A stretch of DNA of 64,000 nt from an uncultured Ignavibacteria bacterium (GTDB lineage Bacteria > Zixibacteria > MSB-5A5 > SM23-73-2). The notes under the pieces were generated by a model. It saw only the letters and a program-made list of their open reading frames with translations, ran no database searches and was not told the DNA's origin. Position numbers and translations under genes: made by a program. The stretch lies in the NCBI GenBank assembly GCA_964447175.1, contig CAYURP010000002.1, positions 937 through 64,936 on the forward strand, given 5' to 3'. Below, one piece after another: positions 25,106-36,201 of this stretch (its first letter is position 1; the number at the start of each line of letters is the position of its first letter).

Positions 25106-25537
25106 CAACTTATTCTTTTATCGACCCGATATAAATTTCTTAAACAAAATAAAATATTAAAAATCAGTGTCAAGAGAAAATTGGACTCTTCATATATTTT
25201 AATTGTTACTGGCAGCAACTGAGGACACAAAAGAGTACAACCTTCCATTAAAAAGAGAAGATTTCAATAAATCATAGCCTTAAGTAGAAGGTATCAGGAT
25301 TCGGTTAGACACAATTTGAAGCATATCTATTTGGAGGAGGCCACTACAACAAATGGTTCCTTGGGATAAGGCGGCATTTGTGGAATGCTCACATATTGAA
25401 CATTAACCCTTTTTGGGTATTGCCGATAAACAAAGCAACAGGAGGAGGTGCGTAGTATATTACTGTGAATTTAACTACTTAGTATACCAATATTAAAAAC
25501 CTAAAATTTACGAAAGGAGGTGAAAGGGGTGAAAAAC

Positions 25538-26044
25538 ATGCGCACACTTTTTGAGAACCGAGCTGGTTTTACACTGGTTGAGCTGGCCATCGGTCTGGTG
25601 ATCATCGGTCTTTTGATCGGAGCTATTCTGGGAGGTGCTCAGATGATCAAGAACGCCAAGATCAAAAGGCAGATCAATGACCTTCAAGGTCTCTATGGCG
25701 CAGTGTACACCTATTTCGATAGGTTCCTGCAGCTGCCAGGTGACTATAATGCTGATGGTTATTTCGACATTGACTCCGTGGTGTGGAACGATATCGAGAG
25801 TGAGGAGTTAGCTTACGAGGCCAAGAGAAGCCCGTTTGGAGCTAAATACTATTTTGGTTCCGATACGCTTGCAACACCAGCAGCATACAGGAATGGTAAT
25901 TACGTCCTGGTAAGCCTTCCGGTGGATGTAGCGGAGAATGTGGACAAGCAGCTCGACGATGGAATTGATAGCACCGGTATCGTGACATCAGATAGTCCTT
26001 ATACCGGCACAGGGAAGATAGATGTTTATTACTTCTTAGACTAA
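25538..26044 (+). CDS. type IV (pseudo)pilin with prepilin leader, likely major pilin of the downstream MSHA-type system
   Basis: ATG at 25538 preferred over upstream GTG. Leader MRTLFENRAG | FTLVELAIGLVIIGLLIGAIL is the class-III signal with cleavage G|F and Glu+5. Confidence 0.8.
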   Translation: MRTLFENRAGFTLVELAIGLVIIGLLIGAILGGAQMIKNAKIKRQINDLQGLYGAVYTYFDRFLQLPGDYNADGYFDIDSVVWNDIESEELAYEAKRSPFGAKYYFGSDTLATPAAYRNGNYVLVSLPVDVAENVDKQLDDGIDSTGIVTSDSPYTGTGKIDVYYFLD

Positions 26045-26142
26045 AGGATAATAGTCGATTTCAAGGTGGGGGACACTGCTCAGGTGGTGTCCCCTTCCCG
26101 AATTTCACAGGAAATGCCAGATACTTTTTTTGAGAAAACTAT

Positions 26143-33365: not shown

Positions 33366-35002
33366 GTAAGACCCTTGGAGATATATTAATAGAGACCGGA
33401 AGGCTAACCAAAGGCCAGTTTGAGCTGGCCAACAGAGAGAAGAGCCGCACCGGAGCCCTGTTCGGAGAGATCTGTGAAAGACTGGGATTTATAAGTCACG
33501 AGGAGGTGCTGGAGTTTCTCGGAAAACAGACGGAGACGCCTTTTCTCGATTTCTCACGTACCCAGATAGATAACGAGGCGGTTAAGCTAATTCCAGAAGA
33601 AGTTGCCAGGTCGAGCAAGCTTATAGCGGTGGAGTTAAAGGACGGGATACTAACCGTTGCCATGGCTAAGCCCAACGACATTAACGTCATAGACCGACTG
33701 CAGGAAATCACCAGCCTGACAATTGAACCCAGAATCGCTGACGAAGAAATGATCTTAAGTTATGTAGATGAATTCTATGGTATGCAGATATCCCCTGAAA
33801 AGGTGATTGAGGAGAGTCTGAATCAGGCTTTAAGTCTGAAGGAGGTGGAGGAGGAAACTCCTCCATTGATCAAATTGGTCGATTCCTTAATGGCTCAGGG
33901 GATAAAGGAAAGGGCCACCGACGTGCATATCGAGGTGGATGAAAGTGTGGGGCGGGTGCGTTACAGGATCGACGGTGTGCTTGAGACCGCTTTCATCTTG
34001 CCCAAAAAAATCTACCGGGCAGTGGTTAGCAGAATAAAGATTATGTCCAGTTTGGACATAACTGAGTCCAGGATACCCCAGGACGGAAGCTTCCGCTTCA
34101 ATTTCAATACTCAGGAGATCGATATCCGGGTTTCCACCATGCCCATTGTCTACGGTGAAAGCGTGGTGATGAGAATACTGCAAAAACCCCGTTTCCTTAT
34201 GGGCCTGAGCGATCTTGGTTTTTGGGGTAACAATCTTGAAATCTTTATGAGATTGGTACAGAAACCCTATGGTATGCTGGTGATCACCGGTCCCACCGGT
34301 TCAGGTAAATCAACTACTCTTTATGCTGCACTTAAAACTGTAAATGCTCTGGAGAAGAACGTAATTACCCTGGAGGATCCGGTAGAGTACCAGATTCCCG
34401 TAACCAAGCAATCTCCTATACATGAAAAGGCAGGATATACCTTTGCCAAGGGACTCCGTTCCATCTTGCGTCACGATCCAGACATCATTCTTCTGGGGGA
34501 GATGAGAGATGAAGAGACTGCAGAGATGGCGTTCCGAGCTTCTATGACTGGGCATTTGGTGTTCACCACTCTGCACGCCAACACCGCCTCAGCTGCTGTG
34601 GCACGTCTTCTGGATATGAAAATTGAGCCCTTTGTAATATCCTCCTCTCTTCTGGCGGTGGTAGCTCAAAGGCTGGCTCGAAAGATATGCCCTAAGTGCA
34701 AGGAGAGCTATACTCCATCTGAGAAAGAGTTGGGCTGTTACGAACAGCTAAAACAATTGGTAAATCCCCTTTTTTATCGAGGTAAAGGCTGCGAAAAATG
34801 TAAATACAGCGGCTATAAAGGAAGGGTGGGTATATACGAGTTGCTTGAGGTAAATGAAGAGGTGAATCAGCTCATCATCAAGAAAGCTCTCTCCTCTGAA
34901 ATCGAGAGGGCTTCTAAGATGAAGAGCATGTTAGAGGACGGAATAGAGAAGGTGCTCAAGGGAGTAACTACCTTTGACGAAATTCGAAGAGTGCTAGGAT
35001 AA
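33362..35002 (+). CDS. type II secretion/type IV pilus assembly ATPase (GspE/PilB/MshE family) with MshEN-like N-terminal tandem motif
   Basis: 546 aa. Walker A GPTGSGKSTT, Asp box, Walker B ILLGEMRD, His box FTTLHAN, tetracysteine CPKC...CEKC. The N-terminus has two tandem motifs, LGDILIETGRLTKGQFELAN and LFGEICERLGFISHEEVLEFLGKQ. Confidence 0.9.
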   Translation: MSKTLGDILIETGRLTKGQFELANREKSRTGALFGEICERLGFISHEEVLEFLGKQTETPFLDFSRTQIDNEAVKLIPEEVARSSKLIAVELKDGILTVAMAKPNDINVIDRLQEITSLTIEPRIADEEMILSYVDEFYGMQISPEKVIEESLNQALSLKEVEEETPPLIKLVDSLMAQGIKERATDVHIEVDESVGRVRYRIDGVLETAFILPKKIYRAVVSRIKIMSSLDITESRIPQDGSFRFNFNTQEIDIRVSTMPIVYGESVVMRILQKPRFLMGLSDLGFWGNNLEIFMRLVQKPYGMLVITGPTGSGKSTTLYAALKTVNALEKNVITLEDPVEYQIPVTKQSPIHEKAGYTFAKGLRSILRHDPDIILLGEMRDEETAEMAFRASMTGHLVFTTLHANTASAAVARLLDMKIEPFVISSSLLAVVAQRLARKICPKCKESYTPSEKELGCYEQLKQLVNPLFYRGKGCEKCKYSGYKGRVGIYELLEVNEEVNQLIIKKALSSEIERASKMKSMLEDGIEKVLKGVTTFDEIRRVLG

Positions 35003-36201
35003 TGGCCACTTATACATATCAAGCAGTCGATAACAAAAACAAAGAAGTAAAAGGTACCCTGAACGCTTACACTCTGGAGGATGCAGAGAAACAGGTTCGG
35101 GAGATGGGTTTGTACCCGATCTCGGTGCAGGGAAAAGCCAAAGGTCAAGGCTTCATCTCTATGTCCCGAAAAATTACCAAAAAAGATTTGCTCGGCCTCA
35201 CTATTCAACTTCACCTGATGTTTACCGCTGGACTGCCTCTCCTGCAGTCTCTGCAGAACATTGCGGAACAGGAGAAAAATCCCAGATTCAAGGAAGTGAT
35301 CGGGGATGTCTGCAAAAGGATAGAGACGTCCGGCAGTTTTTCTGAGGCAATAGCTGCTCACCCCAAAGTATTCCCTCCATTCTACGTTGGCGCAGTCAGG
35401 GCCGGAGAATCCGGAGGTACCCTGGCGGACGTATTGGAGGAGTTAGCCGATTCCCTGGAAAAGCAAGATGAAATGCAGTCAGAGCTGAAACAAGCCATGA
35501 TGTACCCGATGATGATCATGTGCGTTATGTCATGCGTCACCGGCTTTTATGCTTTTTATCTTATGCCCAAAATGATGAAAATGGTCATCGAAATGGGCGC
35601 TCCTATTCCCTTTTACACCAGGATCATACAGTTTATCGTCAATTCCATTATGAGCCTCTGGCTTCCTATCGTGCTCTTCTTTGTCCTAGGTTTTATTGCC
35701 CTGCTTTTCTACCGTAAGACCGAGAGTGGCGCCTATGCTCTGAGCTACATGAAGCTCAAGTTCCCCCTCTTTGGCACAGTTATGCAGAAATCGGTCCTAT
35801 GTAACTTCGCTCATTACCTGTCACTTCTACTTCGTAGCGGCTTTGGGTTGCTAGCGTCCCTGGATCTGGTGAAGGGGACCATCGGAAATAAGTCCATAAT
35901 CAGAGCCATAGAAACGATTGAGGAGAGAATCAAGCGTGGTGAATCCTTTGCTAATTCAATGGCCGGACTCCCGTTCCCCAGCTTTATGGTCACCATGATA
36001 GGGTTAGGAGAGCAGACCGGCAAGGTGCCGGAACAGCTGGCCATGGTGAATGCATACTTCGAAAAGGACATAAGGAGAACTACCAAGAGGGTTTTAACCC
36101 TGCTGGAGCCAATCATCCTGATAACCTTTGGAGGAATTTCCGCGATCATACTTCTTTCCACTTTCTTCCCCATGTATAATTCCTTTGGTCAAATCAAATA
36201 A
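35002..36201 (+). CDS. inner-membrane platform protein (GspF/PilC/MshG family)
   Basis: 399 aa with two repeats of the T2SSF domain and 3 TM segments. The ATGG overlap with the upstream ATPase stop suggests coupling. Confidence 0.85.
   Translation: MATYTYQAVDNKNKEVKGTLNAYTLEDAEKQVREMGLYPISVQGKAKGQGFISMSRKITKKDLLGLTIQLHLMFTAGLPLLQSLQNIAEQEKNPRFKEVIGDVCKRIETSGSFSEAIAAHPKVFPPFYVGAVRAGESGGTLADVLEELADSLEKQDEMQSELKQAMMYPMMIMCVMSCVTGFYAFYLMPKMMKMVIEMGAPIPFYTRIIQFIVNSIMSLWLPIVLFFVLGFIALLFYRKTESGAYALSYMKLKFPLFGTVMQKSVLCNFAHYLSLLLRSGFGLLASLDLVKGTIGNKSIIRAIETIEERIKRGESFANSMAGLPFPSFMVTMIGLGEQTGKVPEQLAMVNAYFEKDIRRTTKRVLTLLEPIILITFGGISAIILLSTFFPMYNSFGQIK

Follow-up and report, generated by a model that had tools for sequence, protein, structure and literature searches.

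A conserved ten-gene locus in Zixibacteria that probably encodes an MSH-class type IV filament machine

What kind of filament or secretion machine does an uncultured member of the Zixibacteria build from a compact block of ten genes? The block lies in a stretch of 64,000 nucleotides of a Zixibacteria metagenome-assembled genome (MAG; contig CAYURP010000002.1, positions 937 to 64,936), hereafter the window, as ten consecutive plus-strand open reading frames (ORFs) spanning 25520/25529-36201. In order, the genes encode two prepilins, a PilM-PilN fusion, two bitopic proteins, a secretin, an AAA+ ATPase, a TPR protein, an extension ATPase, and an inner-membrane platform protein. In our view, the likely product of the locus is a type IV filament machine of the MSH class (MSHA-like); an adhesive pilus is the output that we favor, with lower confidence than the machine itself.

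The region 25529-36201 is a single ten-gene operon. Its nine junctions, read 5′ to 3′, measure +98, +15, +1, 0, -4, 0, +32, -4, and -1 nt, the first separating the two prepilin genes and the second lying between prepilin 2 and the gene at 27010. The original prediction described a cluster with nearly all junctions overlapping or abutting, and its plus-strand ORFs were recovered at the predicted coordinates except for the start of the first: An alignment of orthologues makes the GTG at 25529 the likely start, versus the GTG at 25520 of the listed ORF. The predicted domain content likewise held up, with Pfam assigning N_methyl to both prepilins, PilN to the fusion, Secretin plus STN, AAA_22, TPR, T2SSE plus MshEN, and two copies of T2SSF.

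Gene order provides a direct comparison with a known system. As reference we used the MSHA locus of Aeromonas caviae (NZ_AP026896.1), which reads mshH, mshI (291 aa), mshI2/PilN (197), mshJ (215), mshK (121), mshL (581), mshM (295), mshN (394), mshE (570), mshG (406), mshF, six pilin-like genes, and mshQ; the gene names rest on tblastn (L, M, E, and G), an NCBIfam control, and the known MSHA gene order. The window segment 27010-36201 corresponds to mshI(+I2)-J-K-L-M-N-E-G of this locus, gene for gene and in the same order, as had been predicted from the Vibrio operon. PLSDB labels the reference record an A. caviae “plasmid”; at 4.94 Mb, and carrying exeAB (L012 13926-16324) as well as a full MSHA locus, it is evidently a chromosome. 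The ATPase query led to this locus; the secretin query did not bring up the Aeromonas record. Two other candidate references were rejected: Aeromonas exeAB, the first ExeA-like match, is distinct from mshM, and a Photobacterium match is a lone ExeA-like gene.

In the published MSH model, mshA, mshE, mshG, and mshL are mandatory, as is mshM, MshF, MshQ, and MshB/C/D/O/P are accessory, and loci are reported without a prepilin peptidase (Denise et al. 2019, PMC6668835). The window locus agrees on the last point and combines an MshM-type ATPase, an MshEN-domain ATPase, and a platform protein with the I-J-K-L-M-N-E-G order. Pfam scans of all window ORFs of at least 120 aa found neither a Peptidase_A24 nor a second PilB/PilT-family (T2SSE) ATPase, and tblastn of Aeromonas MshE against the window gave a sole match, at 33359-34993, with no PilT; the predicted lack of a prepilin peptidase and of a retraction ATPase in the window is therefore borne out. 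Overall, the MSHA systems of Vibrio, Aeromonas, and Shewanella resemble the window in having the same assembly genes in the same order, a near-identical profile of hidden Markov model (HMM) scores (compared with the Aeromonas proteins), and a single locus. They differ in that their pilin genes lie downstream, whereas those of the window lie upstream and number only two; in that the window has no MshF, MshQ, MshH, or MshB/C/D/O/P; and in their hosts, which are Proteobacteria, whereas the Zixibacteria belong to the FCB group.

The two genes that follow the secretin gene bear on class membership and on one alternative to it. The first (31060-32028, plus strand) encodes a 322-aa AAA+ ATPase of the ExeA/GspA family (AAA_22, 79.5 bits), placed directly 3′ of the secretin gene as an MshM-like protein. 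It has no peptidoglycan-binding domain and no C39-like domain—the MshM architecture—whereas Aeromonas ExeA carries C39-like and PG_binding_1 domains besides its ATPase. Over the ATPase domain it shares 39.6% identity with Aeromonas ExeA, and its identity with Aeromonas MshM is 38.8%; the prediction that this protein is ExeA-like was checked against membership in a non-ExeA family and stands. The second gene (32061-33365, plus strand) encodes an MshN-like TPR protein, matched by multiple TPR Pfam families, with an N-terminal transmembrane (TM) segment and a Pro/Glu-rich linker. Aeromonas MshN matches it weakly by tblastn (E 0.03), and MshN itself has been reported as a TadD homologue (Denise et al. 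2019, PMC6668835).

The best NCBIfam matches of these two proteins are TIGR03015 for the ATPase (239 bits) and PrsT TIGR02917 for the TPR protein (60 bits), which would suit a component of a PEP-CTERM/exosortase (XrtA) export system. Both scores fall far under the respective thresholds of 324.5 and 312.2, similar sub-threshold scores (233 and 58.7 bits) come from Aeromonas MshM and MshN, and Pfam scans of window ORFs of at least 120 aa contain no exosortase family. Because bona fide MSHA proteins return the same matches, the “PEP-CTERM ATPase” match is a normal MshM signature that denotes family relatedness only. This positive control effectively refutes the export-system explanation, which we regard as extremely improbable.

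The secretin gene (29560-31059, plus strand) encodes an MshL-like outer-membrane protein that matches Pfam Secretin at 141 bits together with STN. Among NCBIfam models, MshL TIGR02519 ranks best at 235.2 bits, with the next-best secretin models about 66 bits lower (PilQ 168.8, cut-off 284; GspD 165.4, cut-off 351). Read by eye, the signal peptide ends in a lipobox (…LFLCAC/TPNF, the slash marking the cleavage site) whose terminal Cys is kept in the orthologues; the corresponding lipobox of Aeromonas MshL is VVGC. On this signal, the secretin is a probable lipoprotein.

The extension ATPase (33362-35002, plus strand) belongs to the GspE/PilB/MshE family (T2SSE, 419 bits) and opens with an MshEN domain (61 bits) that scores 68 bits against the V. 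cholerae MshEN structure 5htl. It reaches 519 bits with the PilB model (cut-off 676) and 521 bits with the GspE model (cut-off 630), close to the 526 and 524 bits of Aeromonas MshE; the GspE model omits the first 74 residues, which form the MshEN domain, whereas the PilB model aligns end to end. In tblastn against the Aeromonas genome, which also has other PilB/GspE-family loci, MshE ranks first of five matches. The adjoining platform protein (35002-36201, plus strand; GspF/PilC/MshG family, T2SSF twice, 181 bits) scores 283 bits with GspF and 251 bits with PilC, both sub-threshold, a pattern shared with Aeromonas MshG (330 and 308 bits).

Upstream of the secretin gene, the segment 27010-29563 encodes the proteins at the MshI, MshJ, and MshK positions. 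The first (27010-28377, plus strand) is a PilM-PilN fusion, MshI-like with GspL-like topology: a cytoplasmic actin-like domain, one long TM/coiled-coil helix, and a periplasmic ferredoxin-like PilN domain (Pfam PilN, residues 371-452). Foldseek comparison of its AF2 model (pLDDT 86) with the PDB places PilM of P. aeruginosa, T. thermophilus, and M. xanthus at the top (E~1e-15), ahead of FtsA and the GspL cytoplasmic domain, and a PDB profile search also matched M. xanthus PilM (E 0.016). We collected 106 homologues, all from Zixibacteria where an organism is named, and aligned 29 of them.

The bitopic protein at the MshJ position (28379-28915, plus strand) has a predicted PilO/GspM-like fold, and the model suggests a PilO-like protein. 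Its neighbor at the MshK position (28916-29563, plus strand) is a bitopic PilP/GspC-HR-like protein that scores 25 bits with PilP TIGR03021 (cut-off 34.65) and also matches GspC; among its orthologues, GspC TIGR01713 was matched in six of six (best E 6.8e-7) and PilP in three of six. GspC matches are weak in the window protein and in Aeromonas MshK alike, the latter having no others, and MshI, MshI2, and MshJ match no NCBIfam family in either genome. PDB profile searches with the MshJ-like and MshK-like alignments returned coiled-coil noise only, and an hhalign comparison of the MshJ-like protein with the PilN part of the fusion was negative. No family unrelated to PilM/N/O/P emerged for the segment, which accords with the predicted reading of a PilM-PilN fusion followed by PilO-like and PilP/GspC-like proteins.

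The operon begins with its two prepilin genes, whose products carry class III signal peptides and the sole two prepilin motifs in the 64-kb window, RAG/FTLVE and YRG/FTLLE. Prepilin 1, the putative major subunit (25529-26044, plus strand; N_methyl, 26 bits), has the leader MKNMRTLFENRAG ahead of FTLVE and a mature length of ~159 aa, with no Cys in the translation. Across six orthologues its N-terminal helix is near-fully conserved, and the motifs LPGD..G..D and DDG are invariant (core consensus LPGDxDxDGxxD); similarity to solved pilins is found in the N-terminal part alone. Prepilin 2 (26143-26994, plus strand; 283 aa; N_methyl, 30 bits) has the leader ...HPYRG/FTLLE.

A GC-rich stem-loop (26065-26098, plus strand; minimum-free-energy fold z -2.65) lies ~20 nt 3′ of the prepilin 1 stop codon. 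Stem-loops occupy the equivalent spot, ~20-30 nt after the stop, in every close Zixibacteria locus (L010 ~2712-2740, L001 ~1362-1398, L002 ~2513-2542, and L005 ~2587-2621), with differing stem sequences and z between -2.1 and -4.3. Lacking a clear U-tract, the element may act in attenuation or in stabilizing the mRNA 3′ end, and not as a full terminator. It could separate the expression of prepilin 1 from that of the downstream genes, which would fit a highly expressed major pilin. Our reasons for casting prepilin 1 as the major subunit are its place at the head of the operon, its small size, its helix, which is the most conserved, and this GC-rich hairpin, conserved in position, that comes after it.

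Several observations weigh against membership in the MSH class. At 235.2 bits, the secretin misses the curated MshL cut-off of 250.2 by 15 bits; Aeromonas MshL passes it at 279.1. MshF, MshQ, and MshB/C/D/O/P are absent from the window and, within the flanks, from all six related loci examined; the original description of the cluster as “complete” was too strong. Similarity of the pilins to MshA (PDB 9lab and Aeromonas MshA) is limited to the N-terminal helix, and prepilin 2 looks, from its sequence, like a GspG-like pilin interrupted by an acidic insert. The ATPase contributes two further points. First, the tandem 24-residue cyclic di-GMP (c-di-GMP)-binding motif defined for V. cholerae MshEN (PMC5013675) is degenerate in the window ATPase, which retains 8/11 and 8/11 positions of a relaxed motif and has both first-position Arg residues replaced (by T and L). 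Aeromonas MshE keeps 10/11 and 11/11 positions and the distant L013 cluster 11/11 and 11/11, and the c-di-GMP model NF053729 gives the window ATPase 35.5 bits (cut-off 38) versus 73.6 for Aeromonas MshE. Any c-di-GMP control of the window machine is putative.

Second, the ATPase phylogeny leaves the relationship to MshE without support. We built a neighbor-joining tree, a distance method, from 25 sequences with 100 bootstraps; it covers the Zixibacteria set, MshE of Aeromonas and Legionella (just two MshE references), annotated PilB, GspE, and XcpR proteins, plasmid-borne systems, and PilT outgroups. Clades were recovered for Zixibacteria with L013 and L008 (99-100), for Aeromonas plus Legionella MshE (100), and for GspE/XcpR (100), and the nodes that join the Zixibacteria clade to the MshE clade have support of at most 40. 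With no supported backbone, the tree does not establish the Zixibacteria ATPases as MshE orthologues. A lone relative of the window ATPase, 79% identical to it, occurs in Zixibacteria bin-832 (L007 10001-11641); it groups with the window ATPase in the tree (84), has none of the other nine cluster genes within 10 kb, and directly follows cheB/cheR/cheY/cheA-like ORFs, as read by eye from N-terminal sequences.

These features could also be explained by a separate type IV filament lineage, located within the super-clade of type IVa pili (T4aP), MSH, and type II secretion systems (T2SS) and outside the strict MSH clade, that has MshM, MshN, and the gene order through common ancestry or cluster transfer. 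A distinct ATPase clade of Zixibacteria, L013, and L008 with no supported join to MshE is what such a lineage would show; its pilin complement is unlike that of MSHA, and the fusion-protein family forms a continuum that includes one locus with reordered genes (L028) and another without MshM and MshN (L027). Set against this are an I-J-K-L-M-N-E-G order exactly as in the reference locus, a secretin whose best model is MshL by a clear interval (~66 bits), and the presence in one locus of candidates for all five published mandatory MSH genes. We judge a separate lineage unlikely on this balance and retain the MSH-class machine. The MSHA-type label of the original prediction thus stands as far as gene order and HMM profile are concerned and is qualified by the sub-cut-off secretin, the pilins, and the ATPase tree.

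The pilins bear on a further alternative, a T2SS-like machine in which a short pseudopilus in the periplasm would drive folded exoproteins out by way of the secretin; among the candidates for cargo would be a protease with a dockerin domain and further secreted proteins from neighboring genes. Prepilin 2 has GspG-like signatures at both ends: It scores 33 bits with GspG TIGR01710, sub-threshold (cut-off 88.85), aligns to an annotated GspG over 67 columns in hhalign, and ends in DPWGTEYCW...FYSAGSN...GGDDICP, which by eye is similar to how two GspG proteins annotated by PGAP end and recurs among orthologues as DPWGxxYxW...FxSxGxN...GDDI. The GspG-like parts are split by an insert of ~150 aa carrying the invariant motif NDDDxDGxVDEDxxDxxGNxD (product residues ~200-222). 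The acidic motifs of both pilins resemble calcium-binding loops, and no Pfam family covers either one; to judge from its motif, the acidic insert of prepilin 2 is probably calcium-binding. Asp-rich loops of this kind are reminiscent of calcium-binding GspG.

A secretion machine would also be in keeping with the absence of Cys from prepilin 1 and the Asp-rich loops in both pilins, with the GspL topology of the fusion and the presence of the GspL cytoplasmic domain among its Foldseek matches, with the GspC matches of all six MshK-like orthologues, with the role of ExeA as a T2SS accessory in Aeromonas, and with the lack of a retraction ATPase in the window. More broadly, the locus resembles T2SS (Gsp/Eps/Exe) with ExeAB in its GspL-like fused topology, its GspM/PilO-like and GspC-HR/PilP-like partners, its secretin, its GspE/F-family motor and platform, its GspG-like pilin, and its ExeA-family ATPase. 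It departs from them in having two pilins only, with no GspH/I/J/K set, and no ExeB; in an ATPase whose 74-residue MshEN N-terminus the GspE model skips; in a secretin of another subfamily, for which the MshL model is preferred and GspD reaches 165 bits versus its cut-off of 351; and in an order that is MSH-like rather than C-D-E-F-G...M. The GspE/XcpR clade (100) likewise excludes the Zixibacteria ATPases. A T2SS-like machine is therefore quite unlikely in our assessment, and a pilus appears the more plausible product than a pseudopilus. The locus is distinct as well from the T4aP system (PilA-BCD, PilMNOPQ, and PilT), since its pilM and pilN are fused, its PilQ and PilB scores are under the cut-offs, and the window has no PilT.

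If the locus encodes an MSH-class machine, is the block conserved as a functional unit? Relatives of the ATPase occur in species-representative genomes labeled Zixibacteria or, for some bins, “Ignavibacteria.” The ten-gene order, including the two upstream prepilin genes, is kept in five Zixibacteria loci (L001, L002, L003, L005, and L010), across which identity falls to 37% for MshI, ~30% for MshK, and 26% for MshN, and it recurs in the more distant L013 cluster, where MshI is 30% identical. Within the flanks examined, two prepilin genes and no others are present in each of the six related loci. Conservation of content and order at such divergence argues for a functional operon. In L001, an extra 390-aa ORF (5060-6232) lies between the PilP-like and secretin genes; it is absent from the window and the other loci.

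Beyond these loci, a profile of the fusion protein recovered 1150 cluster representatives at E<=1e-3; those with names are “PilN domain-containing protein” entries from Deltaproteobacteria MAGs. One such MAG locus, L028, has the same ten-gene repertoire, with an MshEN ATPase and with AAA_22 and TPR genes after the secretin gene, in the order pilins, E, G, MN, O, P, secretin, AAA_22, TPR, and then PilZ and GGDEF. L028 and a second Deltaproteobacteria locus, L027, differ from the window in that the genes for the ATPase and the platform come upstream of the one for the PilMN fusion, in having 4-5 pilin genes, and in their adjacent PilZ and GGDEF genes; L027 also has no AAA_22 and TPR genes. The PilZ-domain protein and the response-regulator-GAF-GGDEF protein that follow the L028 cluster (17170-19216) tie that machine to c-di-GMP signaling, in contrast to the partly eroded MshEN motif of the window lineage. 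The Zixibacteria operon thus belongs to a broad group of compact type IV filament loci with secretins that has received little study, and within this group it is the member that keeps the gene order of Vibrio and Aeromonas.

The upstream position of the pilin genes, which the original prediction had singled out, is correct in that both precede the assembly genes; it is not distinctive, as the mshL locus of Legionella adelaidensis (NZ_LR134433.1, L017) has the same layout. There, upstream pilin genes are followed by genes for a PilM-like protein, PilN, two small hypothetical proteins, a PGAP-named mshL, an AAA ATPase, a hypothetical protein at the TPR position, and a GspE/PulE ATPase. The Legionella locus differs in its separate PilM and PilN genes, in its at least three pilin genes (one of 563 aa), and in having no platform gene after the ATPase.

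Established knowledge of T4aP, MSH, and T2SS machines suggests how the products could work together. A prepilin peptidase encoded elsewhere would cleave both prepilins between G and F. The MshEN-domain ATPase (33362-35002) would then drive the platform (35002-36201) to polymerize prepilin 1 as the major subunit, with the large GspG-like prepilin 2 present at low abundance in a minor, priming, or tip role. An alignment complex made up of the PilM-PilN fusion with the PilO-like and PilP/GspC-like proteins would link the motor in the inner membrane to the lipoprotein secretin, by which the filament would leave the cell. By analogy with ExeA and with TPR pilotins, the ExeA/MshM-type ATPase and the TPR protein may aid assembly or localization of the secretin. 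The likeliest output would be a surface pilus for attachment.

A more specific proposal is that Zixibacteria and some neighboring lineages possess a pared-down, two-pilin MSH-class machine in which prepilin 2 takes over the priming/tip role. In other T4aP/MSH/T2SS-clade systems, this role is filled by four or five minor pilins (MshB/C/D/O/P, GspH-K, or FimU-PilVWX). We put this proposal forward tentatively and hold it to be doubtful.

The surroundings of the operon provide further context. On its upstream side, a tRNA-Phe gene on the opposite strand (25033-25106) lies between the ten-gene block and genes for a TonB-dependent receptor, an 889-aa protein, and a PorV-like protein; on its downstream side, the platform gene is met by convergent minus-strand genes, with no plus-strand ORFs there. 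Matches to the sigma-54 consensus TGGCAC-N5-TTGC occur at chance level, with none within 25107-25528 upstream of prepilin 1, and generic sigma-70 promoter and terminator scans stayed at background level. A 950-aa sigma-54 activator is encoded 6 kb downstream of the cluster (42432-45284, minus strand); TPR repeats make up its N-terminal part, GAF matches it weakly and below threshold, and it has an AAA+ domain and a Fis-type HTH.

Convergent with the operon is a gene for a 946-aa protein (37231-40071, minus strand) with CarboxypepD_reg and Ig-like domains and a probable beta-barrel middle. A homologue is the downstream neighbor in L001 too (14084-17395; 62-69% identity), and given this shared neighbor, the cluster association may reach past the ten genes in close relatives. 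Elsewhere in the window, type I dockerin domains occur in two proteins (6965-7525 and 12367-13788), in one case in fusion with a papain-family (C1) cysteine protease. The presence of dockerins in a genome of the Zixibacteria suggests display at the surface, or secreted complexes, of the cohesin-dockerin type. Outer-membrane gene sets repeat over the window (3415-6952, 7880-11790, and 17981-24389). They comprise receptors with CarboxypepD_reg, Plug, and TonB-dependent barrel domains (7880-10630 and 17981-20653), large proteins without a Pfam family (3415-4890 and 20688-23357), PorV-like barrels (4955-6952, weak, and 23379-24389), and an NHL-repeat protein (10624-11790).

What, then, does the locus add to the picture of type IV filaments? 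In the 2019 survey, reports of the MSH architecture were confined to the Gamma- and Epsilonproteobacteria and the Chrysiogenetes (PMC6668835), and our search of the literature on Zixibacteria with pili or secretion found no description of Zixibacteria pili. The locus, otherwise ordinary though well preserved, would extend MSH-type architecture to an uncultured FCB-group phylum outside that list. Mechanistically, only its conserved two-pilin complement could be instructive, as it bears on the minimum number of pilins required by a type IV filament that uses a secretin, if the genome has no further pilins; should the two-pilin proposal hold, this would represent a natural minimal initiation module, which could also serve in adhesion or form the tip of the piston in a secretion pseudopilus. 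The preserved I-J-K-L-M-N-E-G order helps in annotating such loci in MAGs and in tracing the divergence of the MSH, T4aP, and T2SS machines.

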